NCBI GenBank assembly: GCA_015065295.1
Contig: SVQN01000004.1
Location: 3,047-67,046 of the forward strand
DNA from: Oscillospiraceae bacterium
Lineage (GTDB): Bacteria; Bacillota; Clostridia; Oscillospirales; CAG-272
Reading direction: 5' to 3'
DNA length: 64,000 bases
The notes under the pieces: generated by a model
Database searches by the model: none
Seen by the model: only the letters and a program-made list of their open reading frames with translations
What the model was told of the DNA's origin: nothing
Translations under genes and position numbers: made by a program
Shown: piece by piece, positions 17,149-61,867 of the stretch
How the letters are laid out: every line of letters begins with the position of its first letter
Position numbering within the stretch: the stretch's first letter is position 1

Positions 17149-18705
17149 TTAACCTTCCGGGAAGAAGAATTCGTTGGTCTTGGCGAGCTGCTTGGTGGTC
17201 GCCTTGGTCATCTTCTGGAGAGTGGAGGCGATGGCGTCGGAACCGGCAGTGATCGCGTTGTTGACGGTGCTGCGGATGGAGACGCTGCCGAAGTGGATGT
17301 TGTAGTAGAGTTCGTCGAAGACGAGGTGGAGCATACGGACGGTATCCTGGTCGCGGGCAACCTTACCGGTCAGGGTTACGTTGACGTACGCGTCGACGAC
17401 GGTGTCATGCGATGCTGCGGAGAAGACGTCGAGAACGTGGAGGGTACGGGCCGGGTCTTCAGAGGTTACGGGGATCATCTGCATGAAGGGGTTCAGAATG
17501 ATGGAGTAGTAACGATCCTGGTCTTCGTTGTACTTCGGAGGCGGGAGAACGCCGAAGTCGGCTTCCATGTCGCGGAGTACGCGGGTCCATGCCATACATT
17601 CGGAGTAGAAGAGCGCGCCGTTTTCGGTGAAGATGGTTTCCTGAGCACGGTCGCCGAGACCGCGGAGGTGGCTTGCATGAGCGGAGGAACGGACGTCAAA
17701 TACGGCGTTCTGCTGAGTGAAGAGGAGGTTGATGACCTTGTTGTACATATCCACAAAGTTTTCGCCGGCGGTACCGTCGATGAGTCGGCCGGTGTCGGGA
17801 TCCTTCGTGACAAACTTCGCACCCATGCCGCACATCAGAAGGTCGGACATGATTTCGGTGTAGCTGATCCAGCCGTACTGGTCCATGTCGGTCATCTGGC
17901 CGTCGCCGTCCTTGTCCGAGATAACGGACGTGCAGAGTTCGGTGAACTTGTCAACCGTCCACTGGTTGTTGTCTACGAGGTCATAGGGATTTTCCAGACC
18001 GTGCTGGGAAAGCATTTCCTTGTTGAAGTACAGGGAACGGATACTGTCGAAACGGGTGGTGTCCGCGTCGCTGGTCATGAAGTACAGCTGATTGTTGATG
18101 GTCAGGCTGTCGCGCGCGTTCTGATCCCACCATACGTTGGAGAAATCTACGCCTGCGTCGGGAGCGATGGTGTTCAGGTCGAAGACATTGCCTTCCATGG
18201 CAACCGCATAGCAGTTCATGAGGGTGACGTTGCCGTAGTCGAAGTCGTTGGAGCCGGACTTGACCGCGTTCTTGAGAATGTTCATGGAGTCGCCGTCATG
18301 AAGTTCCACGATGCTGATGTTGAGGAATTCTTCGGTACGGTTTTCACGTTCAATGAACGCGTCGTTTACGGGTTCACCGGTCGTTTCTTCGGGGGAGATG
18401 GAGTTGTAGGAATACCAGCTTGCGGTACAGCCGTTGAGAATGGTGTATTCGTAGCCTTCGTAGTCCTTCTTCTGTACGCCTGCGGTCCAGTCGTAGTCGG
18501 CTTCGATGGCGATCAGACCTTCGCCTTCGCCGGAACCTTCGGCAGCCGCGTCGCCGCCTTCCGCAACGGTTTCTTCGGCCGCGTCGGGAGCGGTGGTGGG
18601 AGTGGTTTCATCCGCATTGGTGCTGCTTTCGGAACAGCCGGTCAGAACGGTAGACGCCAGCATGATCGCGCAGAGCAGAGCGGAGAGGAGTCTCTTGGAA
18701 TTCAT
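17149..18705 (-). CDS. extracellular solute-binding lipoprotein (SBP paralog 1)
   Basis: 518 aa with a signal peptide and lipobox (VLTGC) and an acidic low-complexity linker. It shares blocks with the other six paralogs (VNDA, WWDQ, DKDGDGQMTDMDQYG). GGAGG RBS. Confidence 0.85.
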   Translation of the reverse strand: MNSKRLLSALLCAIMLASTVLTGCSESSTNADETTPTTAPDAAEETVAEGGDAAAEGSGEGEGLIAIEADYDWTAGVQKKDYEGYEYTILNGCTASWYSYNSISPEETTGEPVNDAFIERENRTEEFLNISIVELHDGDSMNILKNAVKSGSNDFDYGNVTLMNCYAVAMEGNVFDLNTIAPDAGVDFSNVWWDQNARDSLTINNQLYFMTSDADTTRFDSIRSLYFNKEMLSQHGLENPYDLVDNNQWTVDKFTELCTSVISDKDGDGQMTDMDQYGWISYTEIMSDLLMCGMGAKFVTKDPDTGRLIDGTAGENFVDMYNKVINLLFTQQNAVFDVRSSAHASHLRGLGDRAQETIFTENGALFYSECMAWTRVLRDMEADFGVLPPPKYNEDQDRYYSIILNPFMQMIPVTSEDPARTLHVLDVFSAASHDTVVDAYVNVTLTGKVARDQDTVRMLHLVFDELYYNIHFGSVSIRSTVNNAITAGSDAIASTLQKMTKATTKQLAKTNEFFFPEG

Positions 18706-18761
18706 GAAATACCTCCGGAATGGAAATGTAAAGAGAGTTGAGTAATATCAACATTAAATTG

Positions 18762-18790
18762 ATTATAACATAAAGTAGAAAGGGAATCAA
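18762..18790 (-). promoter_or_regulatory. Putative SBP1 promoter
   Basis: Minus strand: TTGATT-17 nt-TATAAT. Confidence 0.5.
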
Positions 18791-18816
18791 GAGCGTTTTG
18801 ACAAAATTATGGCCGG

Positions 18817-22843: not shown

Positions 22844-24349
22844 TTACGGATTTGCTGCTTCAAGCTGTTCGGTGAAGAACTTCTGGAGACGTTCCACATA
22901 CTTTTTCTGCGGCTTGGAGTTCTTTGCATCCCACGAAGCAACGTCGGTGTTCGGAGTAGCCGCGTTGAACAGGTCGCTGAACATCTTGTTGTACGAGCTT
23001 GCGTAGTTGCCGAAGAGGTAGGTGAAGCTGATAATGACATTTTCGTGAATGATGTCAAGCATCTTCGCGTCGTCGGTCTGGTCGGCGTAGCGGTTCTTCA
23101 TGGCGATTTCATAGAATGCCGGATATACCTGCTTGTAGCCTTCCGCGTTCAGAGCTTCGACAACAATACCGATGTTTTCCAGATAATCCTTCTGAACGGT
23201 GATCGGAACAACGATCGGACGGTCGGTGGAACCGCCGTAATAATGTTCCTGGGTTTCGTCCAGCTTCGGCATCGGAAGAATACCGTAGGTTACTTCGGAA
23301 TCACTGAAGGTGGTGACAGCCGTGTTGATGGTTTCATAGAGGAACATCGCGCGTCCGTCCTTGAAGATGTTTGTGGATTCGCCGTTCAGGAAACCGCCTT
23401 CCCCGAAGAGAAGATTGTAGTACTTTTCGGCGAGAGAGGCGTTCTTTTCCACATCAAAGTTGTAGTAGAGATTGCCGTTTTCGTCCTTGCAGTAGGGTTC
23501 GACGTTGAAGGCTTCCATACAGCCGTAGTAATAGGTCATGGAAGCATAGCCGTACTGGTCGCCGACATCACGGGTACCGTCGCCGTTGAGGTCAACGTAA
23601 GCACTGTCGGAGATGTTTTTCAGCTCGTCCAGCGTCCAGTTGCCTTCGTATACGGTGTTGTACGGAAGAGCGATGTTCATGTTGTTCATGAGGTCCTTGT
23701 TGAAGAATACAACGCGGGTCTGGGCAAGGTTGTTGTAGGAGATGTTGTTGAACATCATGTACATCTGTCCGAGAACGGTCATACTTTCGAGGGTAGATTC
23801 CGGCCACCACGGCTTTTCAAAATCGAGATGGGGAAGATCGTATACGTTGAGGAAGTATGCCTGAAGGGAAGCGTTTGCCATGTTGACGTCGTGACCCTGC
23901 GCGAGTTCGCAGCTGTCGTCGCCGGCAACGATTGCCTGCTTGAGTGCGTCTACCTGGTCAACTTCGGCGAAGCTGGCTTCGGTCAGAGCAACGTCAACGT
24001 TGAAGCGTTCTTCGACGTTGAGGATTTTCTGGTAAACGGCGTCGTTGACAACATTACCGGTCAGCTCGTCCGCCCAGGTCTGGGAGCGGTTCAGGTCGGT
24101 GCCGAAAATGGTCATGCGGAACTGCCAGCCGTCCATATCCTTTTCGGGAAGGGTATCGGGGATAGCGGCGAGGGCTTCGGCAGCGTCGAGCTGTTTTTCG
24201 GTTTCGGCTTCCGCTGCGGGATCGGTGACTTCGGATGTGGTCGGCGCGGTATCTGCGGCGGTATCGTCTGCGGCATTGTCGCTGCACGCGGGAACGGTCA
24301 GCATGGAGAGAGCCAGCAGAAGCGCGAGGGTGCGTTTCTTGGATTTCAT
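22844..24349 (-). CDS. extracellular solute-binding lipoprotein (SBP paralog 2)
   Basis: 501 aa, lipobox VPAC. Highly similar to paralog 3 along its full length. It has its own promoter and terminator. Confidence 0.88.
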   Translation of the reverse strand: MKSKKRTLALLLALSMLTVPACSDNAADDTAADTAPTTSEVTDPAAEAETEKQLDAAEALAAIPDTLPEKDMDGWQFRMTIFGTDLNRSQTWADELTGNVVNDAVYQKILNVEERFNVDVALTEASFAEVDQVDALKQAIVAGDDSCELAQGHDVNMANASLQAYFLNVYDLPHLDFEKPWWPESTLESMTVLGQMYMMFNNISYNNLAQTRVVFFNKDLMNNMNIALPYNTVYEGNWTLDELKNISDSAYVDLNGDGTRDVGDQYGYASMTYYYGCMEAFNVEPYCKDENGNLYYNFDVEKNASLAEKYYNLLFGEGGFLNGESTNIFKDGRAMFLYETINTAVTTFSDSEVTYGILPMPKLDETQEHYYGGSTDRPIVVPITVQKDYLENIGIVVEALNAEGYKQVYPAFYEIAMKNRYADQTDDAKMLDIIHENVIISFTYLFGNYASSYNKMFSDLFNAATPNTDVASWDAKNSKPQKKYVERLQKFFTEQLEAANP

Positions 24350-24509: not shown

Positions 24510-26018
24510 TTACGGATTTGCCGCTGTAAGCTGTTCGGTGAAGAACTTCTGCAGACGTTCCACATACTTGTTCTGAACCTTTTCGTTCTTCGCTGCCCAC
24601 GAAGCAACGTCGGTGTTCGGAGTAGCCGCGTTGAACAGGTTTTCAAACAGGATGTTGTACGCGCTTGCGTAGTTGCCGTAGAGGTAGGTGAAGCTGATGA
24701 TGACATTGCCGTGAACAAGGTCGAGCATCTTCGCGTCGTCGGTCTGGTCGGCATAACGGTTCTTCATGGCGATTTCATAGAACGCCGGGTATACGTTCTT
24801 GTAGCCTTCCGCGTTCAGAGCTTCGACTACAATACCGATGTTGTCCATATTGGTCGTCTGGACGGTGATCGGAACAGCGATCGGACGGTCGGTGGAGCCG
24901 CCGTAATACTGATCCTGCGATTCTTCCAGCTTCGGCATCGGAAGGATACCGTAAACGACATCGGAATCGCTGAATTTGTTGACCGCTTCGTTCAGCGTTG
25001 CATAGTAGAACATGGCACGGCCGTCGGTGAAGACCTTCGTGATCGTGTCATAGTCGGTTTTGAGACCGCCCTGACCGAAGAGGAGGTTGTAATACTTTTC
25101 AACAAGCGCGGAGGTTCTTTCCACGTCAAGGCTGTAGTAGAGATTGCCGTCTGCATCCTTGCAGTACGGTTCAAGGTTGAAGGGCTCCATGCAGCAGTAG
25201 AAGTAGGTCGGAGAAACGAAGCCGTACTGGTCATCCGGGTCACGGTTACCGTCGCCGTTCAGGTCAAGATACGCACTGTCGGAGAGGGTCTGGAGTTCGT
25301 CCAGCGTCCACTTGCCTTCGTAGACGGTGTCATACGGATGCGCGATGTTCATGTCGTCCATGAGAGTCTTGTTGAAGAACATGACGCGGGTTGCCTCAAG
25401 GTTGACGTAGGAGATGTTGTTGAACATCATGTACATCTGTCCGAGAACGGTCATACTTTCGAGGGTTGCTTCCGGCCACCACGGTTTTTCAAAATCGAGA
25501 TGGGGAATCTTGTAGACATCGTAGAAATACGCTTGAAGCGCAGCGTTTGCCATGCTGATATCGTGACCCTGCGCGAGTTCACAGCTGTCGTCGCCGGCAA
25601 CGATCGCCTGCTTGAGGACATCGACGCTGTCCACGCTGGCAAGGCTGGTTTCGGTCAGAGCAACATCCACATTGAAGCGTTCTTCGACGTTCAGAATCTT
25701 CTTGTAGACTGCATCGTTGACGACGTTGCCGGTTGCTTCTTCGGCATACGTTTCGGCACGGGTCTGGTCAGTGCCGAAAATGGTCATGCGGAACTGCCAG
25801 CCGTCCATATCCTTTTCGGGAAGGGAGTCGGGGATGGCGGCGAGGGCTTCGGCAGCATCGAGCTGTTCTTCGGTTTCAGCTTCCGCTGCGGGATCGGTGA
25901 CTTCGGCGGAGGGAGCGGTGGGTTCATCGCCGTTTGCCGCGGATTCGCCGCAGGAAGGAACGGTCAGCATGGAGAGCGCAAGCAGAAGAGCGATGAGGGA
26001 ACGTTTCTTGGTAGTCAT
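24510..26018 (-). CDS. extracellular solute-binding lipoprotein (SBP paralog 3)
   Basis: 502 aa, lipobox VPSC. AAGGAGG RBS. It lies 30 nt after the DUF4375-like gene. Confidence 0.88.
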   Translation of the reverse strand: MTTKKRSLIALLLALSMLTVPSCGESAANGDEPTAPSAEVTDPAAEAETEEQLDAAEALAAIPDSLPEKDMDGWQFRMTIFGTDQTRAETYAEEATGNVVNDAVYKKILNVEERFNVDVALTETSLASVDSVDVLKQAIVAGDDSCELAQGHDISMANAALQAYFYDVYKIPHLDFEKPWWPEATLESMTVLGQMYMMFNNISYVNLEATRVMFFNKTLMDDMNIAHPYDTVYEGKWTLDELQTLSDSAYLDLNGDGNRDPDDQYGFVSPTYFYCCMEPFNLEPYCKDADGNLYYSLDVERTSALVEKYYNLLFGQGGLKTDYDTITKVFTDGRAMFYYATLNEAVNKFSDSDVVYGILPMPKLEESQDQYYGGSTDRPIAVPITVQTTNMDNIGIVVEALNAEGYKNVYPAFYEIAMKNRYADQTDDAKMLDLVHGNVIISFTYLYGNYASAYNILFENLFNAATPNTDVASWAAKNEKVQNKYVERLQKFFTEQLTAANP

Positions 26019-26048: not shown

Positions 26049-26444
26049 TTATGGATGCGCCGGGAAAAATTCGCTGAGGTTCTTCGTTATGTACGCCTGT
26101 GTTGCGTCGGTGAGGGACGGTTCGAATTTGTAGAACGCCATGTCGGTTTCGACGTAATCGTCGTTCGCACCGTGAGCGACGGAATGGAGATAGTTTTCCG
26201 CCATGGCATCTCCGTGAACCGTACGAAGAGCGGCAGCCAGTTCATCGGGCGCAACATCGGAATACATATCGTGGTAACTGACATAGCCGCCGCTGTTCAT
26301 TTCCGCGTCGTAATTGAAGCAGAGGACGGCGATGCGCTGAACGGGTGTGAGGTCGTCGCGGGTGGGATACGTGCAGTAGGTATCGATGAAGGCGTTCCAT
26401 GGATCGTTTTTTTCGGGGAAGTCGCGGAAGCTGTCAGGGTTCAT
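26049..26444 (-). CDS. DUF4375/DMP19-like small cytoplasmic protein
   Basis: 131 aa. The pattern TPVQRIAVLCFNYDAEMNSGGYVSY resembles the DMP19 C-terminal/DUF4375 family. This is a weak call from memory. Confidence 0.45.
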   Translation of the reverse strand: MNPDSFRDFPEKNDPWNAFIDTYCTYPTRDDLTPVQRIAVLCFNYDAEMNSGGYVSYHDMYSDVAPDELAAALRTVHGDAMAENYLHSVAHGANDDYVETDMAFYKFEPSLTDATQAYITKNLSEFFPAHP

Positions 26445-26557: not shown

Positions 26558-27379
26558 TTACTTATACTGTTTCCGGAATACGGCCGGCGATATTCCTTCC
26601 GTACGCCGGAATACACTGCAGAAATGCGAGGTATTGACATAGCCGTTTTCCAGCGCAACATCGGCAATGGATTTATCCGTTCCGATCAATGCGTTTTTTG
26701 CGGCGATTATCCGCTGATTGGAAATGTACTGCATGACGGTCATGTTGATCTCCTCCCGGAACCGGCGGCACATATAATATTTGCTGATGTGACAGTGGCG
26801 GGCGATCTGATCCAGCGATAAATCGTCCCGGAGATGAGTATTGATGTAGGTCAGCATCGTATTCATCAGCGGGTCGGCGTGATATACAGCGGTGATATCC
26901 GGTACAAGCGTATCGGAAAAATAGGAAATCATCTGTAAAATCAGACCGGCACTCCGGGCATCGTTCGTATGGAGCGGATTCTTTATTATTTGTGAAGCCT
27001 CTTCAAAAAAATGTTCAATTCTTGCAATTTTCTCCGGTTCCCTGCATTCCGCTGACCATGAGGTCTGCTCAAGGTTTTCGAGAAGATGCAGACTTCCGCA
27101 GGCGGTCAGTATGTTCCGGACCGAATGCCGCGAGAAGACCAGTTTGCTCCGAATATAGTTCTCCGGAACCGAGGGATGGGTGTAGTGAAGCATGAGCGGC
27201 GGAATAAAATACAGGCGGCTGGATTCCAGACGATACAGGGTATCTCCGAGAAGAATGTTTCCGTTCCCTTGAACAACCCATAAAATTTCACATCCGTCAT
27301 CATGAACGTGCTGACGTCCGTACAGGGAATCCTGACCGATCTCGCGGATATAAACCTGTTCGATCCATTTGTTTTCCAA
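26558..27379 (-). CDS. AraC-family transcriptional regulator (cupin + HTH)
   Basis: 273 aa with a C-terminal AraC HTH (ALENGYVNTSHFCSVFRRTEGISPAVFRK). TTG start with AAGGAG RBS. Divergent from SBP4. Confidence 0.88.
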   Translation of the reverse strand: MENKWIEQVYIREIGQDSLYGRQHVHDDGCEILWVVQGNGNILLGDTLYRLESSRLYFIPPLMLHYTHPSVPENYIRSKLVFSRHSVRNILTACGSLHLLENLEQTSWSAECREPEKIARIEHFFEEASQIIKNPLHTNDARSAGLILQMISYFSDTLVPDITAVYHADPLMNTMLTYINTHLRDDLSLDQIARHCHISKYYMCRRFREEINMTVMQYISNQRIIAAKNALIGTDKSIADVALENGYVNTSHFCSVFRRTEGISPAVFRKQYK

Positions 27380-27569: not shown

Positions 27570-29045
27570 ATGTTCAACAAAAAACGTCTTGTTTCCCTGA
27601 TCCTTCTTGCACTGCTGCTCGGCTCCTGTTCTTCCGCAACGGATGACACCTCCGGAGATACCTCGGCTCCCACGTCTGCCGATACTGCGGCGGAAGTGAC
27701 CGAAGAAGCGGCCGAAGAAACTGTCCCTGAGGAGACCGAACCGGACTGGTATGCCAACATTCCCGAAGGCACGACGTTTGACGGCTACACCTTCTCCGCG
27801 CTCAGCTACGACTACTCCAACGGCAACTGGAGCATCTATCTTGCTCCGGCGGAAATGATCGGCGAAGTTCTCAACGACGCGGCGTATCAGCGCAACACCG
27901 AAGTGGAGGAACTTCTCGGCATTGAAATCGAAGAAATTCTCGACGGAAATTCCGAAACCAGCTTCAAAAACTCCATAATGGCGGGGGACGGCGAGACCTA
28001 TGACCTGATCGCTTTCTGGTCTCCCGGCGACCGCGCGTCGTTCATCACTTCCAACCTCGTTTATGACTGGAAATCTCTCCCGAACACTGATCTGACCGCC
28101 GCATGGTACAACCAGACCGCAAACGACGCCTACGAATTTGTCGGTAAGCAGTATTTCGCGGTCAGCGACTATACCTTCCCGGTTCACCAGCATTTCCGCA
28201 TCCTGTTCAACAAGGATTTAATGAAAGACCTGAATCTGGAACTCCCCTACGAATCGGTTCACAACGGAACGTGGACATTCGACAAGATGATGGATTATAC
28301 CTCCGGTGTGTACAGTGATCTCGACGGCAACGGTCAGGCAGACCTGAACGACCGGTACGGCATTGTTCTCAACGCGGCATTTACATCTATCTTCCCTATC
28401 AACAGCGGCGAACTTCCCGTGACCTGTACGGACGAAGGATTCCAGTTCAACCTGTACTCCGACCGCATCATCAGCATTGTTGAGAGAATGCAGGCGTTCC
28501 GCACGAATCAGGACGTTTACCTGAATCTTGCGGGCGGCAACACGCAGTACGAAATTTTCCAGGCGGGCAACGCGATCTTTGAACCCTACGGTTCCGACCC
28601 GAAGCTGCTCCGCGACATCGAATTCGACCTCGGCTACCTGCCCTATCCGAAGTTTGACGAAAATCAGGAAGACTATGTTGTCTGGTCGTCCGGCGGCATG
28701 ATGGCTCTTCCGGTCACGCTGACCAATGCGGAACGTACCGGCGCGATCATCGAAGCCCTCAGCGCGGGTTCCAGCAAATATGTCAAGGATGCTTTTGTCG
28801 AACAGTATATCGAAGGCAAGGTTCTGCGTGACGAAGATTCCCAGATTATCTACCGCATGATGCGCGACAAGGCGACTTACGACCTCTCCTACAACATTGA
28901 CCCGTCCGGCAAGATCGGGGAATACAAGTGGTACTCTACGTTTGTAAATGATGCCGCAGCAAATCCCGCAAGCTACTGGGAATCCCAGCAGAAGGCGATC
29001 AACAAGACCTACAACAATCTGTTTGAAAAGATCAAGGGCAACTGA
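27570..29045 (+). CDS. extracellular solute-binding lipoprotein (SBP paralog 4)
   Basis: 491 aa, lipobox LGSC, DLDGNGQADLNDRYG loop. First gene of the sialic-acid-related cluster. Confidence 0.85.
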   Translation: MFNKKRLVSLILLALLLGSCSSATDDTSGDTSAPTSADTAAEVTEEAAEETVPEETEPDWYANIPEGTTFDGYTFSALSYDYSNGNWSIYLAPAEMIGEVLNDAAYQRNTEVEELLGIEIEEILDGNSETSFKNSIMAGDGETYDLIAFWSPGDRASFITSNLVYDWKSLPNTDLTAAWYNQTANDAYEFVGKQYFAVSDYTFPVHQHFRILFNKDLMKDLNLELPYESVHNGTWTFDKMMDYTSGVYSDLDGNGQADLNDRYGIVLNAAFTSIFPINSGELPVTCTDEGFQFNLYSDRIISIVERMQAFRTNQDVYLNLAGGNTQYEIFQAGNAIFEPYGSDPKLLRDIEFDLGYLPYPKFDENQEDYVVWSSGGMMALPVTLTNAERTGAIIEALSAGSSKYVKDAFVEQYIEGKVLRDEDSQIIYRMMRDKATYDLSYNIDPSGKIGEYKWYSTFVNDAAANPASYWESQQKAINKTYNNLFEKIKGN

Positions 29046-30097: not shown

Positions 30098-30140
30098 CCC
30101 GTCAGCCGGGCGGAATTTTGGTCAAATCCCGGATGACCGC

Positions 30141-30169
30141 TTGATTCTCCACCCGATCTGTGCTATAAT
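30141..30169 (+). promoter_or_regulatory. Putative nanA promoter
   Basis: TTGATT-17 nt-TATAAT. Confidence 0.55.
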
Positions 30170-30223
30170 GAAAAAAACACCGAATTCCATACAGAATTTC
30201 ACGATACTTTGGAGGATATCACC

Positions 30224-31102: not shown

Positions 31103-31110
31103 AGTTTTTC

Positions 31111-31170
31111 GGGGAAAACCTTTTTAAGGAAAAGGTTTTCCCCGAACCCCTTTCCAAAACCTTTTTGAAC
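31111..31170 (+). repeat. Rep-1 copy C
   Basis: GGGGAAAACCTTTTTAAGGAAAAGGTTTTCCCC-GAA-CCCCTTTCCAAAACCTTTTTGAAC. Lies between nanA and the sialidase gene. Confidence 0.9.
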
Positions 31171-31189
31171 AGGGAGGAGATAGTATATT

Positions 31190-35528: not shown

Positions 35529-35541
35529 GAGAAAAATCATC

Positions 35542-38851: not shown

Positions 38852-38878
38852 AAGAAAATATATTTAAGGAGAAACACT

Positions 38879-50226: not shown

Positions 50227-51717
50227 ATGAAGACGAAACGAACCCTCGCATGGATTCTTGCCCTTTTGATGCTTGCTTCCTCGCTGGCGGCGTGCAGTGC
50301 TCCCGAAGAAGCGTCGGCAGAGGAAACCGGCGCACCGTCGGCAGAAGCGGAAACGGTTCCGGAAGAGGCGGAAACCGAAGACGTGGACAGCCGTGCGTCG
50401 CTGTCGGACAATCTTCCGGAAGGACTGGATTACGAAGGCTACGAATTCCGGATCTTCACTTACTCGCCGACCGCGTATGAAGTGGAGGAACTGACCGGCG
50501 ACGTGGTCGAGGACTCCAAGTACGCGCGGAATCTGGACATTCAGGAACGATTCAACGCGGTCATCAAAGCGATCGCAACGCCCGGGATCGCGGAGCTGGA
50601 TGCCGGTCTGAAGGCGAGCGTCATGGCGGGCGACCATGCGTATGACATTGCCATCCCGCACCAGATTCAGAGCGGCCCCGGCTTCATCAACGGAGATGTC
50701 ATCCGTCCGTGGAACGACGTACCTTACATTGACGCGACCCGTCCGTGGTGGAACCAGACGATCAACGAAACCATCCGGATTCTCGACCAGCAGTATTACA
50801 TAGCGGGCTATATCACCATGCCGACGCCCTTCTGTATGTATGCGAACAAGGGTCTTCTGGCGGATTACGGCTACGAGGACATCTACGGCATCGTAAAGGA
50901 AGGCACATGGACGCTTGACAAGCTGGCGGAAATCACGTCGAAGGCATACGTTGACCTTGACGGCGGTGGTACGGTCGATACGACTGACCAGTACGGCATC
51001 AGCTTCAACAATGACAACACGACGCTGAACTTCATGTACTCGTCCGGAATGTACTCGGTTATCATCGACGAAACGACGGGTATGCCGGTTCCGAATGTAT
51101 TCAACGACAAGATGATCTCGCTCATCGACAAGATGTACAATCTGATCTACGAAGGAAACCAGACGCTGTTCACGACGTACAACACGCAGAAGGAACAGGG
51201 CATCGGCGGCTTCCACGAAGGACGGATTCTGTTCCTCTGCGGCGGTGTCGGCGACCTTGCAACGCACCGTGACGCGGACATCGACCTCGGCGTTATCCCC
51301 TATCCGAAGTGGGACGAAGCGCAGGACACCTACCACACGCACGTTGACGCATGGAACGGTATGCTCTGCATTCCGAAGACCGCGCAGGACAGCGACCTCG
51401 AGCGCACCGGCGTGATCGTCGAAGCGATGGCGGCCTACACCTACAAGTTCGTCATCCCGGACTACTACGACGTTGCTCTCGGCACAAAGTACGTCCGCGA
51501 CGAACAGTCCCGCGAAATGCTCGACCTCATCTTCGACGGTGTCGTCTACGACTTCGGCTACATCTTCGACTCCTGGAACGGCTGCACCTGGACGCTCCCG
51601 AACCTCATGACCCAGAAAAAGACCGACCTCGCCTCCTACTGGAAGGGCATCGAAAAGAAAGTCAACAAGTTCTACGAAAAGCTCTACAAGTCCGTTGAGG
51701 AAAACGCGAACGGCTGA
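50227..51717 (+). CDS. extracellular solute-binding lipoprotein (SBP paralog 5)
   Basis: Start at ATG 50227 (MKTKRTL; GGAG 9 nt upstream). Lipobox LAAC, DLDGGGTVDTTDQYG loop. Confidence 0.85.
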   Translation: MKTKRTLAWILALLMLASSLAACSAPEEASAEETGAPSAEAETVPEEAETEDVDSRASLSDNLPEGLDYEGYEFRIFTYSPTAYEVEELTGDVVEDSKYARNLDIQERFNAVIKAIATPGIAELDAGLKASVMAGDHAYDIAIPHQIQSGPGFINGDVIRPWNDVPYIDATRPWWNQTINETIRILDQQYYIAGYITMPTPFCMYANKGLLADYGYEDIYGIVKEGTWTLDKLAEITSKAYVDLDGGGTVDTTDQYGISFNNDNTTLNFMYSSGMYSVIIDETTGMPVPNVFNDKMISLIDKMYNLIYEGNQTLFTTYNTQKEQGIGGFHEGRILFLCGGVGDLATHRDADIDLGVIPYPKWDEAQDTYHTHVDAWNGMLCIPKTAQDSDLERTGVIVEAMAAYTYKFVIPDYYDVALGTKYVRDEQSREMLDLIFDGVVYDFGYIFDSWNGCTWTLPNLMTQKKTDLASYWKGIEKKVNKFYEKLYKSVEENANG

Positions 51718-53969: not shown

Positions 53970-54977
53970 TTACCGTCTCTTCGGTTCGATGAAACCGATC
54001 TTGCGTCTTACCTTGGACATGGTGCGCGCGGCGTCGCGGCCTGCGGCTTCGGCACCCTTGGCCATGACGTCTTCGAGGTAGGCCTTGTCTGCGGAGAGAC
54101 GGGCGAATTCCGCCTGAACGGGAGCGAGCGCGTCCGCGCAGGTTTCGCCGACCGCGAGCTTGAAGTCGCCGTAGCCCTTGCCTTCGAATTCGGCTTCGAT
54201 TTCGTCTTCCGTCTTGCCGGTGAACGCACCGTAGATGGACATCAGGTTCATGATGCCGTCCTTGCCTTCGCCGCGGCGGATCTCACAGCCGGAGTCGGTT
54301 ACGGCGCGCTTGAATTTGCGGATGATGGCGTCCTTCGGGTCGAGAATGCGGACAACCGCGTTTTCGTTTTCGTCGGACTTGGACATCTTCTTCGTCGGTT
54401 CCGCGAGAGACATGATCTTCGCCGTGGTCGGGGGAATGTACGGTTCCGGAACAACGAACGTGTCGCCGTAAATCTGGTTGAAGCGGGTCGCAATGTCGCG
54501 GGTCAGCTCGAGATGCTGCTTCTGGTCAACGCCGACCGGTACCATCTCGGTCTGGTACAGCAGAATGTCCGCCGCCATCAGGGACGGGTAGGTGAACAGC
54601 CCCGCGTTGATGTTGTCGGCGTTCTTCGCGGACTTGTCCTTGAACTGGGTCATGCGGGAGAGTTCGCCGAACATGGTGTAGCAGTCGAGAATCCATCCCA
54701 GTTCCGCGTGTCCGGAAACGTGGCTCTGTACGAACAGCGTGTTCTTTTCCGGATCAAGACCGCACGCAATGTAGAGCGCGAGCGTTTCGTAGGTGCGCTT
54801 GCGGAGGTCTGCCGGAACCTGACGGACGGTGATCGCGTGTTCGTCAACTACGCAGTAGTAGCAGTGATAGGTGTCGGAGAAATCCGCAAAATTCCGGATT
54901 GCGCCGAGGTAGTTGCCGATGGTCAGCACTCCGGACGGCTGTACGCCGGAGAATACAACTTTTTTATCCTTGTACAT
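53970..54977 (-). CDS. trpS: tryptophan--tRNA ligase
   Basis: 335 aa with SGVQPSGVLTIGNYLGA (HIGH region) and KMSKS. Confidence 0.95.
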   Translation of the reverse strand: MYKDKKVVFSGVQPSGVLTIGNYLGAIRNFADFSDTYHCYYCVVDEHAITVRQVPADLRKRTYETLALYIACGLDPEKNTLFVQSHVSGHAELGWILDCYTMFGELSRMTQFKDKSAKNADNINAGLFTYPSLMAADILLYQTEMVPVGVDQKQHLELTRDIATRFNQIYGDTFVVPEPYIPPTTAKIMSLAEPTKKMSKSDENENAVVRILDPKDAIIRKFKRAVTDSGCEIRRGEGKDGIMNLMSIYGAFTGKTEDEIEAEFEGKGYGDFKLAVGETCADALAPVQAEFARLSADKAYLEDVMAKGAEAAGRDAARTMSKVRRKIGFIEPKRR

Positions 54978-55014
54978 AATATGAAAATTCCTTTGTGTTG
55001 GGATTGGTGGGAAA

Positions 55015-56514
55015 TTATTCGCCGATCAGGTCTTTCAGAGTTCTTTCCATCATCTTGCTGATGACTTTCTTCTGGGAGGCGAAGGTGGAAGCGGGTTCCT
55101 GACCGTTCAGGACGATGTTCTGGACAGCGGTGGATGCGCCGAAGGAGAATGCGTGTTCCAGTTCGTAGGAACGGTTGTCGATGACGAGGTCGAGCATTTC
55201 GATGGATTCCTTGTCGCGGAGATACTTCATGGAGAGCGCGGTTTCGTAGTATGCCGGACGGAGAACTTCACGGGACTTCGCGGACATAGCTTCCAGAATG
55301 AAGGAGCTGTCGTCTACGCTGCCTGCGCTGATCGGAATGGTGGCGTAGGAACCAACGAACCATACGACGTTGCGGTAGTTTTCCTGCTGTTCGTCATACT
55401 TCGGGCAGGGAGCGATACCGAAGTCGGTTTCCATTTCGCGGAGACGGATGACCATCTGGAGGTTGGTGATCCAGAACAGACCGCGGTTTTCTTCAAACAT
55501 CTTGGTGGTACAGAGGTGGTAGCCTTCGCTGCCGTAGTTGTGGTAGTTCAGGGAGACGTTGGTGTCGTTCATGAACTGGGAGAGATCCTTCAGAATGCCG
55601 TATACGCGTTCGTCGCCTTCAAGAGCAAAGACCGGCATATCGTTTTCGTCCTTGTCGATGAGGTGGTAGCCGGAGGTTACGAGCATCGCGGTTGCGTTTT
55701 CGTTCTGGGTCAGGTTGGCGATGGAGTCCTTGGAGTCGAGGTCGCCGTCACCGTCCAGGTCGATGGACGCGCCGGTGCAGAGGGTCTTGTAGGTGTCGAA
55801 CGTCCATTCGTCGTTTGCTACATAGTAGTAGGGAGTTTCAAAGCCGTGATCCTGAAGCACCTGAAGGTTAATCATGGTACACCACGTTGCGTCGTTGTTC
55901 AGCGTGCTGATGTCACCGGAAACCATGTAGAGCTTGTTCGCAATGCTGAGGTCGGCGATGGAACGCTGGTCCCACCATGCACGTTCAAGGTTCATGTGGG
56001 TCGCGTCTGCCATGAGGTCGGTGAGATAGCCGTTCTTGAGGAGAACACCGGCCTGATCGAGCGGGGGCATTGCAACGTCGTAGGTGGAGTCGCCCGCCGT
56101 TACCGCGTTCTGGATGGTCGGAACGAGAACGCCGTTGTCGCATTCGACTGCGGCGATATTTGCATTGTAGGTTTCGCCGACGTAGGAGTTCCGGTTGAAT
56201 ACCGCGTCGTTGAGAACTTCACCGGTCAGACTTTCGACCCAGATGCTTCCTTCCGCCCAGTCGGTGAAGGATGCCTTGGACTTGGTTGCGAAGGTAAAGG
56301 TCTTGCCGTCGAAATCCTTTTCGCCGAGTTCGGGGTCGAAGGATTCGCCTTCCTCTTCTTCAGCGACGACTTCGTCACCGGCAGAGGGAGTTTCAACATC
56401 GGATGCGGTGGTTTCACCGGCGGTGGGAGCGGCGTTGTCGGTGCTTTCCGAGCACGCGATCATGGAGGATGCCAGCATCAGCAGAGCGAGCATCAGACAG
56501 AACTTCTTTTTCAT
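55015..56514 (-). CDS. extracellular solute-binding lipoprotein (SBP paralog 6)
   Basis: 499 aa, lipobox MIAC, DLDGDGDLDSKDS loop. Confidence 0.85.
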   Translation of the reverse strand: MKKKFCLMLALLMLASSMIACSESTDNAAPTAGETTASDVETPSAGDEVVAEEEEGESFDPELGEKDFDGKTFTFATKSKASFTDWAEGSIWVESLTGEVLNDAVFNRNSYVGETYNANIAAVECDNGVLVPTIQNAVTAGDSTYDVAMPPLDQAGVLLKNGYLTDLMADATHMNLERAWWDQRSIADLSIANKLYMVSGDISTLNNDATWCTMINLQVLQDHGFETPYYYVANDEWTFDTYKTLCTGASIDLDGDGDLDSKDSIANLTQNENATAMLVTSGYHLIDKDENDMPVFALEGDERVYGILKDLSQFMNDTNVSLNYHNYGSEGYHLCTTKMFEENRGLFWITNLQMVIRLREMETDFGIAPCPKYDEQQENYRNVVWFVGSYATIPISAGSVDDSSFILEAMSAKSREVLRPAYYETALSMKYLRDKESIEMLDLVIDNRSYELEHAFSFGASTAVQNIVLNGQEPASTFASQKKVISKMMERTLKDLIGE

Positions 56515-56572: not shown

Positions 56573-58258
56573 TCAGGTATTCTGCTCGGCGCGAATCCGG
56601 CGCAGACGTTTCATCACGTCATTTCCGCCGCGTCCGAACAGATCGTGAAGAAGGGCATATTCCGCGTACAGGCGTTCGTAAACCGCCTGATTTTCCGGAA
56701 TCGGACGGTAAACCCTGTCCGACAGACTGCCCATGGCATTTGCCGCATCGTCAAGGGAATCGTAACCTCCGGCTTCCGCTCCTGCCGCACACGCCGCGAA
56801 AATCGCTCCGCCGAGGGACGGACACTGCGCGGAACCGGCAATGCGGAATTCCAGACCGGTCACATCCGCGTAAATCTGCATGATGAACGGATTTTTGACG
56901 GCGATTCCTCCGGCTGCACGGATTTCGTTCACGGGAACGCCGTGTTCGCGGTAGTTTTCGATAATCATCCGGGTTCCGTAAGCGGTCGCTTCCACGAGGG
57001 CGCGGAACAGGTCTTCCGGACGGGTGTTCAGATTCATGCCGATGAACAGGCCGGAGAGGTCGAAATCGGCTAAAACGCTGCGGTTGCCGTTCCACCAGTC
57101 GAGCGCGAGAATGCCGGACTGTCCGGGCTTCTGTGCGGCGGCTTTTTCGGTGAGCAGGGCAATGGGGGAAAGTCCGCGTTCGGCGGCTTCGTCACGGTAT
57201 CCGGCGGGACAGAGATTGTCCGCGAACCACGCGAAATGGTCTCCGACGCAGGTCTGACCGGCTTCGTAGCCGTAAAATCCGGGGATCAGACCGTCTTTGA
57301 CCACGCCGCAGATTCCGGAAACGGGAAGCGGTTCTTCGGAAACGAGCATGTGAACGCTCGAGGTTCCCATGACCATCGCCATCTGACCGGGAGCGGTCAC
57401 TTTCAGCGAAGGAGCCGTAACGTGCGCGTCGGAAACGGCAGCGGCAACGGCAATACCCGCACGCAGACCGAACCGTGCGGCGGCCTTTTCGGAAAGACGT
57501 CCGGCGAGGGTACCGACAGGGGTGACGGAACCGGAAAGTTTGTTCTGGAAAATATGGGCAAGACGCGGGTCGAGTTCGTTCAGAAAATCGGGAGAGGGAT
57601 ACGCGCCGTCCTGATACAATGCCTTGTAGCCGGTGACGCAGGAGTTGCGGGTGAGATTGCCCGTGAGCTGCCAGACGATCCAGTCGCCGGCATCCACGAA
57701 ATAATCGGCGGAGTCGTAAACATCGGGAGCCTTGTCGAGGGTTTCCCAGACCTTCGGCAGCATCCATTCACTGGAAACGCGGCCGCCGTATCGTGCCAGC
57801 CATGCTTCGCCGCGCCGGACGGCAAGATCGGTGATGCGGTCGGCATACGGTTCGCCGCCGTGATGCTTCCACAGCTTGACGTAGGCGTGCGGGTTGTCCG
57901 CGAAGCGTTCGTCGGGGAGGAGGCAGAGGGGCGTGCCGGTTTTGTCCGTGGGGATGAGGGTGCAGGTCGTGAAATCCACGCCGATGCCGATGATATCGTC
58001 GGCGGAAACACCGCATTTGTCCAGCAGGGCGGGAAGAATGTGATCGAGAGCGTCAAAGTAGTCCTGCGGATGCTGGAGGGCGAAATCCGGCGGGAGCTTG
58101 ACCTTGCCGTGCGGGGTGACGAGGGTCTCGTCCATGACGGCATGAGGGTAATCGAACACGGTGGTGCCGATTTCCGCCCCGTCGGACGTTCTCACCAGGA
58201 GGGCACGCGCGGAAAGGGTCCCGAAATCGAGACCGATGGTATAGGACATTCGTTCCAT
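56573..58258 (-). CDS. araB: ribulokinase (FGGY carbohydrate kinase)
   Basis: 561 aa with the FGGY N-terminus YTIGLDFGTLSARALLV. The length is typical of AraB. Confidence 0.8.
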   Translation of the reverse strand: MERMSYTIGLDFGTLSARALLVRTSDGAEIGTTVFDYPHAVMDETLVTPHGKVKLPPDFALQHPQDYFDALDHILPALLDKCGVSADDIIGIGVDFTTCTLIPTDKTGTPLCLLPDERFADNPHAYVKLWKHHGGEPYADRITDLAVRRGEAWLARYGGRVSSEWMLPKVWETLDKAPDVYDSADYFVDAGDWIVWQLTGNLTRNSCVTGYKALYQDGAYPSPDFLNELDPRLAHIFQNKLSGSVTPVGTLAGRLSEKAAARFGLRAGIAVAAAVSDAHVTAPSLKVTAPGQMAMVMGTSSVHMLVSEEPLPVSGICGVVKDGLIPGFYGYEAGQTCVGDHFAWFADNLCPAGYRDEAAERGLSPIALLTEKAAAQKPGQSGILALDWWNGNRSVLADFDLSGLFIGMNLNTRPEDLFRALVEATAYGTRMIIENYREHGVPVNEIRAAGGIAVKNPFIMQIYADVTGLEFRIAGSAQCPSLGGAIFAACAAGAEAGGYDSLDDAANAMGSLSDRVYRPIPENQAVYERLYAEYALLHDLFGRGGNDVMKRLRRIRAEQNT

Positions 58259-58422: not shown

Positions 58423-58692
58423 ATGGAGGATGGGATTGTGGGACAAAAAGAAAAACTGATCCGCCGCCTGTTGTCGAAACCGAAGGATTTTACTTTTGAC
58501 GAAGTGGAAACCCTTCTTCGGTATTTGGATTATCATAGGTCGGATAAAGGAAGAACCAGTGGTTCGCGGGTTATGTTTACCAGTGAAAAGCACGCGCCGA
58601 TCATGATGCATAAACCGCATCCGCGGAAAGAATTATTGGAATATCAGATCAGGCAATTGATTGAGATTCTGAAACAGGAGGGATTGCTGTGA
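58423..58692 (+). CDS. hicA: HicA-family toxin (type II TA)
   Basis: ~85-89 aa with KDFTFDEVETLLRYLDY...GRTSGSRVMF...HKPHP. The start may be GTG 58438, after GGAGG. Overlaps hicB (GTGA). Confidence 0.75.
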   Translation: MEDGIVGQKEKLIRRLLSKPKDFTFDEVETLLRYLDYHRSDKGRTSGSRVMFTSEKHAPIMMHKPHPRKELLEYQIRQLIEILKQEGLL

Positions 58693-59027
58693 ATAATACA
58701 ATGGAATACAAGGGGTATCTCGGCAGTGTGGAATTTTCCGAGGAAGACGGAGTTTTTTACGGAAAAGTTATGGGAATCCGTGCATTGATTTCTTATGAAG
58801 GAACGAATGCCCGCGAATTGGTTGAGGATTTTCACGGCGCAGTGGAGGATTATCTGGAATTGTGTGCTGCGGAGGGCAGGGAACCGGAAAAAGCCTACAA
58901 GGGCAGCTTCAATGTCCGGATTTCGCCGGAACTCCATAAGCAGGCGGTGATTTTTGCGGCGGCGCATCAGATGTCACTGAACAGCTTTGTAGAACACGCA
59001 ATGCGGCTTTCGCTTGCGGAACAATAA
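58689..59027 (+). CDS. hicB: HicB-family antitoxin
   Basis: 112 aa with YKGYLGSVEFSEEDGVFYGKV...GTNARELVEDFHGAVEDYLELC and an RHH-like C-terminus. Confidence 0.8.
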   Translation: MNNTMEYKGYLGSVEFSEEDGVFYGKVMGIRALISYEGTNARELVEDFHGAVEDYLELCAAEGREPEKAYKGSFNVRISPELHKQAVIFAAAHQMSLNSFVEHAMRLSLAEQ

Positions 59028-59571: not shown

Positions 59572-59585
59572 CGGCTTTTGAACGT

Positions 59586-60374
59586 TCAGAAGAGTTCGTC
59601 AAGCAGGCGGTAATAGCGGAGAAGTTCGCGGTCGGGCGTGATTCCGAGAGCGTCGAACAGCCGGTCGGGATCAAAACCTTCGCGGACCCTGCCGCCGTAG
59701 GAACCGTTCATGTTCCACGTCAGGCTGCGGTGACAGAGAGAAATGTCCTGATACGGGTCGGCGATTCCGCTGTCCCCGAGGTCGATGAAGCCGGAAAGAC
59801 GGCCGTTTTCCGCGAAAATATTCGGCAGACAGTAGTCTCCATGGGACAATACGGGTGTTTCCGATGGACGGTTGTCGTACAGCCACGCGAGCAGATGTTC
59901 CGGAGAGGCGAATCCGCCGGGGCCGAACGTTGCAGGATCGACGGCATTCACGTCCACCTGACCGTTCACGACATGACGTTCCGCCGCCATCAGATGACGG
60001 TCGAGACGGCTGTCGCACGGACATCCGGAAATATCAGTTTTCCACAGGATGTGCATCCCTTCCGCGAGGATTTCAAGAAGAACGTCCGCGTTGTCGAGAT
60101 ATTCGTCCGCGCAGGACATTTTCCCTGGAACGCGCGACATCAGGAGATACCGCATCCCGTCGGAAACCTGCGCGTGAAGCACCTGCGGAGCGGGGAGATT
60201 TTTCGATGCCATCCACGAGAGCATGGAGACTTCGCGGTCGTGCGCGTCGGAGTATGCGCCGATTTTCAGCACCATGTCGTCGAAACAGAGTACCTGAGAG
60301 CCGGACATTCCCACGTTGTCAAGGGTGTACGGACGGTCTCCGAGGAGAGTCCGGAGTTCAGTCGGAAGGAACAT
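59586..60374 (-). CDS. aminoglycoside 3'-phosphotransferase-family kinase, APH(3')-like
   Basis: 262 aa with SHGDYCLPNIF, GFIDLGDSGIADPYQD and the C-terminus YYRLLDELF, as in APH(3') enzymes. The ATG overlaps the SBP7 stop (TAATG). Confidence 0.82.
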   Translation of the reverse strand: MFLPTELRTLLGDRPYTLDNVGMSGSQVLCFDDMVLKIGAYSDAHDREVSMLSWMASKNLPAPQVLHAQVSDGMRYLLMSRVPGKMSCADEYLDNADVLLEILAEGMHILWKTDISGCPCDSRLDRHLMAAERHVVNGQVDVNAVDPATFGPGGFASPEHLLAWLYDNRPSETPVLSHGDYCLPNIFAENGRLSGFIDLGDSGIADPYQDISLCHRSLTWNMNGSYGGRVREGFDPDRLFDALGITPDRELLRYYRLLDELF

Positions 60375-61867
60375 TATTCTTCAATAAAATTCTTAATCAT
60401 TCGTTCGTAGGTCTTGTCCATGACCTTCTGCTTGGAGGTGAATTTGGAAGCATACGCGCCGGGATCCTTGAAGAGGTCGGAAAGCTGCCATGTCCAGCCG
60501 TTCCATCCGCAGTAGAGGTACGCGAAGTCCATGACGCGGCTGTCGAGGACAATCTGCATCATTTCCACGGATTCTTCGTCGCGGGCAACCTTGGTCTGGA
60601 GCGAAACGTCAACGAACGCGGGAACGACGTTGTTCGTGGAGTACGCGGACATCGCTTCGATCAGCGCGCCGGTCATTTCGGGATTCTTGATGACGACCGG
60701 AACGGAAATGCAGTTGCATCCTGCGTCGCAGAGGGTTGCGTAGGATTCCTGTGCGGGATCGTTCTTCGGAAGGGGAAGAACGCCGAACGTGCCTTCGAAA
60801 TCGCGTGCGTGACCGTAATAGTGGTGGAGCTGCGCCGGTGCGAAGACTGCGATCTGCTGCATCATCGCGTACAGCGGGTAGCTGTGGCCGTTGAAGACGG
60901 TGCTTCCCGCCTGATTGTTCAGTTCGTAGAACTTTTCGGCAACTTTCTGGGCTTCTTCGGAGCCGAGCAGATGTTCCATGGTGTAGTCTTCGTTGATCTT
61001 CATGAACCGCAGACCCGCACCGTAGATGAGAGCCGCACCCTTGCATCCGTCGATGCCGTTGGAACCCATCGTGAAGCCGTAGCGGTCGCCTTCGTCGCGC
61101 ACACCGTCGCCGTTGATGTCGATGTAGATTTCGGAAGTGATTTCCTTCAGCTTGTCAATCGTCCATTCGCCTTCGCGGACGAGGTCATAGAGATTTTCGA
61201 TGCCCATGTCCGTGGCGATGTCCTTGTTGAAGCACATCGACCAGGTCTGACCGACGTAGCTGATGCAGAGGTCGCTTACCATCAGGTAGAGCTTGTCGTT
61301 CAGGGACGCGGATTCGATAACGGACGCGGGATACCATCTCTGGGTAAAATCGAGGTGGGGAATCTCGCTGAGGTTCATGTAATTCCCGTTCAGCGCGTCC
61401 GACGAGGTCTGGGCAAGCTGATTGAGGATGATATCGTAGGCAGGGTCGCCTGCCTGAACGGTCGCCTTGACAGTGTTGGAAACCGTCGTGTAGTCGGTGG
61501 CGAGTGGTTCCGCGAAGGAGACGTTGAAGCGTTCTTCCATTGCGGCGTTCCGGTTGTAGATCGCGTCGTTGACTACTTCGCCGGTGATTTCTTCGCTGGC
61601 AATGTCGCTGCATCCGTCGCTCTTCTGTCCGGCGATGGTAACGGTCTCGCCGCCGAAATCAAGTTCCGGAACATTGTCGGTGAGAACTTCTTCGGTTTCC
61701 GTCTCGGTTTCTTCGGCGATCACTTCGACCTCGGAGGAAACCTCTCCGGAGGTGGGAGCCGTCTCATCCGAACCGGTACCGGATTCACTGCACGAGGTCA
61801 GAACCGGATTTGCCAGCATGAGCAGCGTCAGAAAAAAGGAAAGTTTACGCAGAGCAGTTGTTTTCAT
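60374..61867 (-). CDS. extracellular solute-binding lipoprotein (SBP paralog 7)
   Basis: Start at ATG 61867 (MKTTALRKLSFF...LTSC lipobox). The track ORF (to 61945) reads into Rep-1 copy J. DINGDGVRDEGDRYG loop. Confidence 0.85.
   Translation of the reverse strand: MKTTALRKLSFFLTLLMLANPVLTSCSESGTGSDETAPTSGEVSSEVEVIAEETETETEEVLTDNVPELDFGGETVTIAGQKSDGCSDIASEEITGEVVNDAIYNRNAAMEERFNVSFAEPLATDYTTVSNTVKATVQAGDPAYDIILNQLAQTSSDALNGNYMNLSEIPHLDFTQRWYPASVIESASLNDKLYLMVSDLCISYVGQTWSMCFNKDIATDMGIENLYDLVREGEWTIDKLKEITSEIYIDINGDGVRDEGDRYGFTMGSNGIDGCKGAALIYGAGLRFMKINEDYTMEHLLGSEEAQKVAEKFYELNNQAGSTVFNGHSYPLYAMMQQIAVFAPAQLHHYYGHARDFEGTFGVLPLPKNDPAQESYATLCDAGCNCISVPVVIKNPEMTGALIEAMSAYSTNNVVPAFVDVSLQTKVARDEESVEMMQIVLDSRVMDFAYLYCGWNGWTWQLSDLFKDPGAYASKFTSKQKVMDKTYERMIKNFIEE

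Follow-up and report, generated by a model that had tools for sequence, protein, structure and literature searches.

In canonical sugar importers of the CUT1 class of ATP-binding cassette (ABC) transporters, the gene for the solute-binding protein (SBP) sits in an SBP-permease-permease operon, and such operons are the usual basis for predicting sugar ABC importers and for deciding on their substrates. Shared-component importers are also known, in which several binding proteins or systems use one translocator or ATPase and some of the extra SBP genes are unlinked: HisJ and ArgT on HisQMP, AliA, AliB and AmiA on Ami, OppA1-5 of Borrelia, and the multitask ATPases MsmK, MsiK and MsmX. Here we describe a 64,000-nt stretch of DNA from an Oscillospiraceae bacterium (GenBank assembly GCA_015065295.1, contig SVQN01000004.1, positions 3,047 to 67,046 of the forward strand), hereafter the window, which carries seven paralogous genes for SBP-like lipoproteins of about 500 amino acids (aa) and no ABC permease or ATPase gene. 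Orphan SBP expansions have been described among the Bug/TTT proteins of Bordetella, Rhodoplanes (434 genes) and Cupriavidus (PMC5994714, PMC5812351). In the cluster G SBPs AlgQ1/2, FusA and Blon_2351, an EF-hand-like loop connects helix alpha8 to strand beta6 of domain II; in the AlgQ2-AlgM1M2SS complex this loop lies at the SBP-permease interface and touches AlgM1, and its mutation in FusA abolishes uptake while ligand binding is unchanged (Culurgioni et al. 2017, PMC5222590). A literature search returned no description of the family studied here or of orphan CUT1 SBP expansions in Clostridia.

The seven genes, named SBP1 to SBP7 in order of position, are located at 17149-18705 (minus strand), 22844-24349 (minus), 24510-26018 (minus), 27570-29045 (plus), 50227-51717 (plus), 55015-56514 (minus) and 60374-61867 (minus), and encode proteins of 518, 501, 502, 491, 496, 499 and 497 aa, respectively. 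These lengths are matched by public gene calls on identical contigs. Upstream extension of the open reading frame (ORF) is possible for SBP5 (ATG at 50209) and SBP7 (TTG at 61945); the starts given in an earlier note on this DNA, made from the letters alone, are those of the public calls. A hidden Markov model (HMM) of the family recovered exactly seven members within the window, in agreement with the ORFs, their strands and the gene calls, and with the seven paralogous lipoproteins that the note had proposed. Full-length alignments gave pairwise identities of 25-34%, with the exception of SBP2 and SBP3 (77%), which are a tandem duplicate pair. All seven proteins carry a signal peptide and a lipobox, as expected for SBPs anchored in Gram-positive bacteria (LTGC, VPAC, VPSC, LGSC, LAAC, MIAC and LTSC, from SBP1 to SBP7), and a lipobox was present in 115 of 120 homologues. 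Each lipobox is followed by a linker of ~44 aa with 12-15 Asp or Glu and 0-1 Lys or Arg, disordered in the AlphaFold models of SBP1 and SBP4, so that the lipobox and acidic linker claimed for the whole set are present in every member. The sequence blocks said to be shared were found as described for TGE-VVNDA, WW(D/P/N)Q and an EF-hand-like loop (DxDGDG...D..YG), and in four paralogs only for the RFN block. A protein identical to SBP5 already bears the NCBI name "extracellular solute-binding protein [Clostridia bacterium]".

The lack of ABC permease and ATPase genes, which had also been pointed out from the sequence, withstood every scan that was made. Pfam scans of essentially all other window genes returned no BPD_transp_1 match, and ABC_tran gave no match above threshold in the window, where P-loop matches below threshold came only from an AAA_18 kinase and the GTPase Der (38783-40216; 23.9 bits, cut-off 25). 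A search of all six frames of the window with a local CUT1-permease HMM, and with UgpC as ATPase query, was likewise negative. This HMM was built from six E. coli permeases; it recovers its own training sequences at E ~1e-100 and independently detects Clostridia permeases in three of the related loci described below (L097, L190 and L268). The flanks, ~18 kb read from other identical contigs (~10 kb on the left side and ~8 kb on the right), contained no ABC permease or ATPase gene either. Window genes were picked with a bootstrapped codon model and cross-checked against public gene calls on identical contigs.

Structure prediction placed the proteins among known sugar SBPs. The AlphaFold2 models of SBP1 (pLDDT 88.4, pTM 0.83) and SBP4 (pLDDT 84.2, pTM 0.81) show the type II periplasmic-binding-protein fold of CUT1 cluster D, and Foldseek matched each of them to more than 900 solved chains of the PDB at E <= 0.001. 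The top matches reached E ~1e-13 to 1e-14 with probability 1.0 and TM scores of 0.6-0.7 normalised on the target; nearly all of the first 50 were either ABC-importer SBPs for carbohydrates or crystal constructs with an MBP fusion, and those with names included MalE1-3, UgpB, GltA, Lmo0181, AbnE, RafE, a cyclodextrin-binding protein and TMBP. None of the seven window proteins reached a Pfam or NCBIfam cut-off. NCBIfam gave no match, and the best Pfam scores were those of SBP6 to SBP_bac_8 (PF13416; 17.4 bits, cut-off 27, E 0.004) and of SBP7 to SBP_bac_1 (PF01547; 15.7 bits, cut-off 26, E 0.015). In an alignment of 68 family members, SBP_bac_1 was matched by 16 and SBP_bac_8 by 10 sequences at E <= 0.01, and a profile of the seven paralogs searched against PDB sequences gave marginal matches (E 0.02) to sugar-binding proteins. 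The SBP identity put forward in the earlier note was therefore recovered by fold and not by the HMM route suggested there; the models of SBP1 and SBP4 match CUT1 oligosaccharide SBPs, and the possibility that the proteins lack the SBP fold was not realised. Judged by these models, the SBP fold assignment is correct, and the fold match together with the weak SBP_bac_1/8 matches in a minority of members identifies the family as a remote branch of MalE-like sugar SBPs that is mostly missed by current models. With the CUT1 cluster D SBPs (MalE, AbnE, RafE, GltA, Lmo0181) it shares the two-lobed MalE-like fold and Gram-positive-type lipoprotein anchoring. It differs from them in sequences that fall below the Pfam and NCBIfam cut-offs, in being ~60-100 residues longer, in the long acidic tether, and in genes that do not lie next to a pair of BPD_transp_1 permease genes.

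The family is large and, by its named sources, clostridial. A search of 5.8 billion proteins returned homologues only from metagenome-assembled genomes (MAGs) of uncultured Clostridia, Eubacteriales, Oscillospiraceae and Ruminococcaceae and from metagenomes; most of them are named "hypothetical protein", and wherever a source is named in the record, it is a MAG of uncultured Clostridia (Eubacteriales/Oscillospiraceae-type). A HMMER scan of 1.84 billion cluster representatives (50% identity) yielded 7,038 at E <= 1e-30 and 16,788 at E <= 1e-3. For the analysis of gene neighbourhoods, relatives were collected with a hand-built degenerate DNA pattern (WTxD, 33 nt, DxDGxG, 15 nt, D), which retrieves only members with the exact loop pattern and which has seven matches in the window, all in the SBP genes, with 0 expected from shuffles. 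Among GTDB species genomes the pattern retrieved at least 119 stretches (810 kb, 71 assemblies) with at least 161 family members, from MAGs of ruminant, horse, rabbit, human and termite guts or of digesters among the matches listed; among metagenome contigs it retrieved 120 stretches (632 kb) with 166 members. Both scans together covered 1.44 Mb and at least 327 family ORFs, in stretches of 8 kb or shorter on MAG contigs that are fragmentary. Seven further contexts of +-6 to 10 kb were picked by HMM or protein searches instead of the pattern. Clustering of paralogs was seen again outside the window, with three family genes in 21 kb in locus L019 and six head-to-tail in locus L271 (816-10524; GCA_045578725.1, JAZNKS010000131.1). 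The six encode proteins of 489, 492, 488, 487, 487 and 558 aa, are separated by spacers of mostly ~170-190 nt and are followed by a gene for an RpiR-type regulator; this array clearly illustrates how the family expands through tandem duplication.

With seven members in 64 kb, three in 21 kb, six in tandem and ~7,000 clusters at 50% identity, the family is an orphan expansion comparable with that of the Bug/TTT proteins, which it resembles in being lineage-specific, in having genes scattered beside regulators and metabolic genes and in outnumbering adjacent membrane components. The Bug expansions, however, serve secondary TTT transporters in Proteobacteria, whereas the proteins described here are ABC-type MalE-fold lipoproteins of monoderm Clostridia. 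Neither the fold nor the weak Pfam matches, which are MalE-like (SBP_bac_1/8), indicate homology to TctC/Bug proteins.

Orphan status proved to be a property of the whole family. Among the matches listed in the 1.44 Mb, no CUT1 permease pair was found beside any of the at least 327 members, and only two loci held BPD_transp_1 genes. One of them, in L097, is a frameshifted MalG-like fragment in a MAG of 1.4x coverage and lies downstream of an ORF that is SBP-like but goes unmatched by the family HMM; the other, in L190, is the permease gene of a polar amino-acid system that has all its parts (SBP_bac_3, permease and ATPase). A further BPD_transp_1 gene, in L268, also belongs to a polar amino-acid system. 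The seven contexts chosen by HMM or protein searches, including the six-paralog array, were all orphan. The suggestion that the dispersal might be a local peculiarity was thus not upheld, since it extends to more than 70 species-level MAGs and to metagenomes. Polar amino-acid and FecCD-type (iron) ABC systems in the same related loci provide an internal control: their SBP, permease and ATPase genes are kept together, and the dispersal is therefore specific to this family. In L010, a 600-aa SBP_bac_5 (oligopeptide-type) gene without permeases (8049-9851) lies directly upstream of a family member, and so other SBP classes may also be unlinked in these lineages.

ATPases of the MalK/MsmK type were found as solitary genes in lineages that bear the family. 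Two of them, in L088 (4517-5707; ABC_tran, OB_MalK and TOBE_2 domains) and L249 (158-1276; ABC_tran and TOBE_2), are located 0.5-1.3 kb from a family SBP gene, and further examples occur in L145/L146 (10001-11140) and L147 (10001-11113). Homologues of the L088 protein are 75-100% identical across many Clostridia MAGs. In the two lineages whose contexts were read over 10 kb, there was no permease within that distance of the ATPase gene, and the genes that follow the solitary ATPases, considered as candidate partners and set aside because they do not recur, encode secreted or anchored proteins and not permeases. These ATPases indicate that CUT1-type import machinery exists in the lineages concerned and that the unlinking already extends to its ATPase.

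The most conserved surface motif of the family is a WTxD helix followed by the EF-hand-like loop, which in SBP1 reads DKDGDGQMTDMD (17881-17961, minus strand). It is repeated in SBP2 (23558-23638, minus), SBP3 (25230-25310, minus), SBP4 (28272-28352, plus), SBP5 (50908-50988, plus; loop DLDGGG), SBP6 (55726-55806, minus; loop DLDGDGDLDSKD followed by SIA in place of YG) and SBP7 (61085-61165, minus). The consensus D-x-[DN]-G-[DNG]-G-x5-D was present in every paralog of the window and in 105 of the 120 homologues, with acidic or amide residues at positions 1, 3, 5 and 12, and often 9. In both AlphaFold2 models a helix of the second lobe precedes the loop and a strand follows it; in SBP1 the helix spans residues 251-260, the loop 264-275 and the strand 276-281. 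Position 12 is Asp and a strand follows the loop, in departure from the helix-loop-helix with Glu at position 12 of canonical EF-hands; "DxDxDG-type, EF-hand-like" is accordingly the accurate label, and calcium would be its putative ligand. A profile of 16 sequences of the loop region aligned the loop with TKDTNGDGKLDQWG of AbnE (E 0.0097), the aligned segment having the form FNK...PY..V..G.WT.D...(loop)..YG; one sequence on its own, a 163-aa fragment spanning the loop, had no match in the PDB. Since AbnE is a canonical, operon-encoded SBP, the loop was inherited with the SBP rather than newly inserted. Cluster G SBPs (AlgQ1/AlgQ2, FusA, Blon_2351) likewise have an EF-hand-like motif joining helix to strand in the second domain, and several C-terminal helices as in our family models. 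The present proteins are smaller, however: their folded part comprises roughly 430-460 residues, and ~70 kDa is given for that cluster (PMC5222590). No cluster G protein was among their top 50 Foldseek matches, and cluster G genes are linked to those of their permeases whereas the family genes are unlinked. By size, C-terminal four-helix region and nearest structural neighbours, the family lies outside cluster G.

From these observations, we consider it reasonably probable that the seven proteins function as binding proteins and that a small number of translocators, encoded elsewhere, are shared among them. Each lipoprotein would be cut at its lipobox and lipid-anchored on the outer face of the cytoplasmic membrane, where the acidic disordered tether of ~40 residues would hold the binding domain. 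Each paralog would bind a different mono- or oligosaccharide and dock on CUT1 translocators, one or a few in number and common to many paralogs, each composed of two BPD_transp_1 permeases and a MalK/MsmK-type ATPase. The WTxD / DxDGDG...D..YG helix-loop could serve as the docking element on the permease, by analogy with cluster G, and specificities would be gained or lost one gene at a time. The gene neighbourhoods fit uptake of the bound ligand: cytoplasmic catabolic genes lie beside the SBP genes with no transporter gene among them (FucI-SBP7-APH, FGGY-SBP6 and SBP4-BNR-NanA-like-BNR), and AraC, LysR and RpiR regulators adjoin family SBP genes in the window and related loci. The known shared-component importers resemble such an arrangement, but they comprise two to five SBPs, at least one of which is encoded in the transporter operon, whereas here hundreds of sampled members have no permease gene linked to them, in a family restricted to the sugar (CUT1) fold. 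A more far-reaching version, in which sugar uptake of a major lineage of gut and digester Clostridia works as a hub and spokes, with dozens of interchangeable, long-tethered lipoproteins of this one family, so far without a model, delivering to one or a few CUT1 translocators, the SBP, permease and ATPase genes all unlinked, single-gene duplication as the source of new specificities and the WTxD/Ca-loop as universal docking key, is one to which we would give slightly less than even chances.

Several points weigh against translocator sharing. The Ca-loop could be conserved simply because it stabilises the structure of a secreted protein, and the closest solved folds are those of cluster D (~390-415 aa) and not of cluster G, for which the loop-permease contact was shown. 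No partner permease was found in the ~1.5 Mb sampled around family genes, from which, and not from a whole-genome count, the ratio of SBPs to permeases was inferred. Both scans selected the exact loop pattern, and a permease-linked subfamily without it could have been missed; the contexts chosen by HMM argue against this, with n=7 only. Finally, the pairings of SBP and enzyme are not conserved between species. An alternative to transport is that the SBP fold has been retained for surface glycan capture, as a scaffold for extracellular enzymes, or for ligand sensing with a membrane partner, to which the systematic lack of permease genes beside at least 327 members, the unusually long acidic tether, the presence of secreted or large beta-helix proteins among the neighbours and the frequency of regulators would all lend themselves. 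The adjacent regulators are, however, of cytoplasmic AraC, LysR and RpiR types that sense imported molecules, the neighbouring cytoplasmic catabolic enzymes need their ligand inside the cell, and the neighbours include neither a histidine kinase nor a chemoreceptor nor any other membrane partner that recurs. The evidence leans to a shared translocator over a non-transport role, which we regard as unlikely, because the conserved Ca loop matches the permease-interface element of AlgQ2 and FusA (PMC5222590), because solitary MalK-type ATPases point to CUT1-type import in the same lineages, and because sugar-type permeases are nearly absent from the 1.44 Mb of sampled DNA.

That near absence also argues against one dedicated permease pair per SBP, placed at a distance so that the genome-wide ratio is ~1:1. 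The ratio at hand comes from sampled DNA, not from a whole-genome count, and ATPase genes are unlinked in many Gram-positives (MsmK/MsiK); yet many dedicated pairs would be expected in 1.44 Mb, where one CUT1-like fragment was seen among the matches listed, and arrays of three to seven paralogs span 16-64 kb without a single permease. We therefore hold distant dedicated pairs to be very improbable. No more credible is delivery of the substrate to a membrane component other than BPD_transp_1, such as an MFS or ABC-2 transporter, a 12TM protein or an unknown family. Candidates of this kind exist in the MFS gene of the window (35542-36852), in an ABC_tran gene and a 12TM_1 gene that lie among the three family genes of L019, and in ABC-2-like gene pairs in a few loci. 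No membrane-protein cluster recurs beside family genes, though, the frequency of ABC exporters fits background, and MalE-fold SBPs work with BPD_transp_1 permeases. The 250-340-aa membrane ORFs that were tested turned out to be ThiT, ZIP, MgtC, AGCS, EamA, SSF and PlsY proteins.

Orphan SBPs as such are already known; what differs here is the ABC CUT1 fold class, the monoderm Clostridia host, the completeness of the unlinking and the escape from standard models. As thousands of these SBP-like lipoproteins fall outside Pfam and NCBIfam and are unlinked to permeases, the carbohydrate uptake of abundant uncultured rumen and gut Clostridia is largely invisible to annotation. If many SBPs do share one translocator, the family would be a natural test of one permease pair recognising many binding proteins, would show substrate range evolving one gene at a time and would stand for ABC importers where the Bug/TTT expansions stand for their class, with the WTxD/Ca loop as a compact and testable docking motif.

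Across the sampled loci, the commonest neighbours of family genes were AraC regulators, GFO/IDH/MocA oxidoreductases, FAD oxidoreductases, SDRs, GH4 and GH29 enzymes, a glycyl-radical enzyme and sugar-phosphate isomerase-like proteins. Clustering of these neighbours revealed no recurrent partner. The top neighbour cluster (96 ORFs in 74 loci) was the antisense shadow of the family genes themselves: open antisense ORFs lie opposite nearly every true gene of the window, which has a G+C content of ~54% (e.g., 17083-18741 on the plus strand across from SBP1), and those of the family cluster by BLAST across genomes and can mimic a conserved neighbour. The ABC_tran and 12TM_1 pair between the three paralogs of L019 and the ABC-2-like pairs were set aside as partners since neither recurred. 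Also rejected were ~530-aa sigma-70-like cytoplasmic proteins, present in two contexts and absent from the larger sample. These two proteins, encoded in L013 (6241-7845, just right of the window) and L019 (18077-19657), come from unrelated genomes, are 28% identical over 337 aa and combine an N-terminal sigma-70 region 2/4 with a long uncharacterised C-terminal extension. The pairing of SBP genes with enzymes or regulators remarked on in the earlier note is true of the window and does not amount to a conserved rule: a 58%-identical SBP1 homologue has no kinase-like neighbour, neighbours elsewhere are heterogeneous, and conservation of the window-type neighbours (FucI, APH, BNR, NanA) was not seen beside homologues, the fetched members being mostly ~30% identical to any window paralog.

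The identities of the genes adjoining the SBPs in the window stood largely as first read, with a few adjustments. Just downstream of SBP1 (promoter-like site at 18790-18762), a gene at 15976-17034 (minus strand; terminator-like hairpin at 15966-15944) encodes a cytoplasmic protein of 352 aa, a length shared by the public call, for which an APH-fold kinase had been proposed. Its likeness to this fold is marginal: it aligned with the amicoumacin kinase 6SUI at E 0.11, including the catalytic D..N and D-x-x motifs, matched no Pfam or NCBIfam family and showed no BLASTP similarity to the APH protein of the window. The catalytic His is replaced (VQGDISINN vs VHADLHHGN), and the protein could be either a pseudokinase or a divergent kinase that acts on small molecules. 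SBP2, between a promoter-like site at 24428-24400 and a terminator-like hairpin at 22822-22786, is apparently monocistronic. Upstream of SBP3 (terminator-like hairpin at 24487-24449) lies a small gene at 26049-26444 (minus; promoter-like site at 26525-26497), which is probably co-transcribed with it; its product, read before as DUF4375-like, belongs to what is now the DMP19 family of Pfam (PF14300, E 2.1e-7). An AraC-family regulator gene (26558-27379, minus; HTH_18, HTH_AraC and AraC_binding) diverges from SBP4. SBP4 heads a same-strand run continued by three cytoplasmic genes (29066-32179, plus), identified by Pfam as a BNR_2 protein (29066-30097), a DHDPS/NanA-family lyase (30209-31102) and a second BNR_2 protein (31190-32179); the name sialidase earlier given to the two BNR_2 proteins is a domain-based prediction. 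A LysR-family regulator gene (49271-50182, plus; HTH_1 and LysR_substrate) lies 45 nt upstream of SBP5. Upstream of SBP6 there is an FGGY-family sugar kinase gene (56573-58258, minus; FGGY_N and FGGY_C; promoter-like site at 58329-58301). SBP7 is preceded by the gene for the L-fucose isomerase FucI (62003-63814, minus; Fucose_iso_N1, N2 and C; public call of 603 aa) and followed by that for an APH-family phosphotransferase (59586-60374, minus; PF01636, E 3.6e-21), whose start overlaps the SBP7 stop codon.

The remaining genes assigned by Pfam comprise the MFS transporter and Der already mentioned, a pyrimidine operon, Fe-ADH, a GH127 enzyme, PNP, NadE, TrxB, methyltransferases, a GDSL esterase, PlsY, an aldolase-SDR fusion, BlaI/BlaR, Zn-ADH, TrpS and a HicAB pair. 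The trpS gene (53970-54977) is on the same strand as SBP6 and begins 37 nt after it (gap 54978-55014), a placement behind FGGY kinase and SBP6 that is unusual for Firmicutes; an Rfam scan of the whole window returned no T-box and no other family. The HicB antitoxin gene (58689-59027; PF05534) stands beside the HicA toxin gene, a ~270-nt ORF upstream, and the pair separates the FGGY-SBP6 unit from the FucI-SBP7-APH unit. A GC-clamped palindrome, GGGGAAAACCTTTT-loop-AAAAGGTTTTCCCC, occurs in three intergenic copies: at 31108-31146 in the gap between the NanA-like and BNR genes, at 35495-35529 just upstream of the MFS gene and at 61952-61988 in the gap between fucI and SBP7. Two of the three copies have no clean T-run on the coding strand, and instead of a simple terminator the palindrome may represent an intercistronic stabiliser or an element of the REP type.

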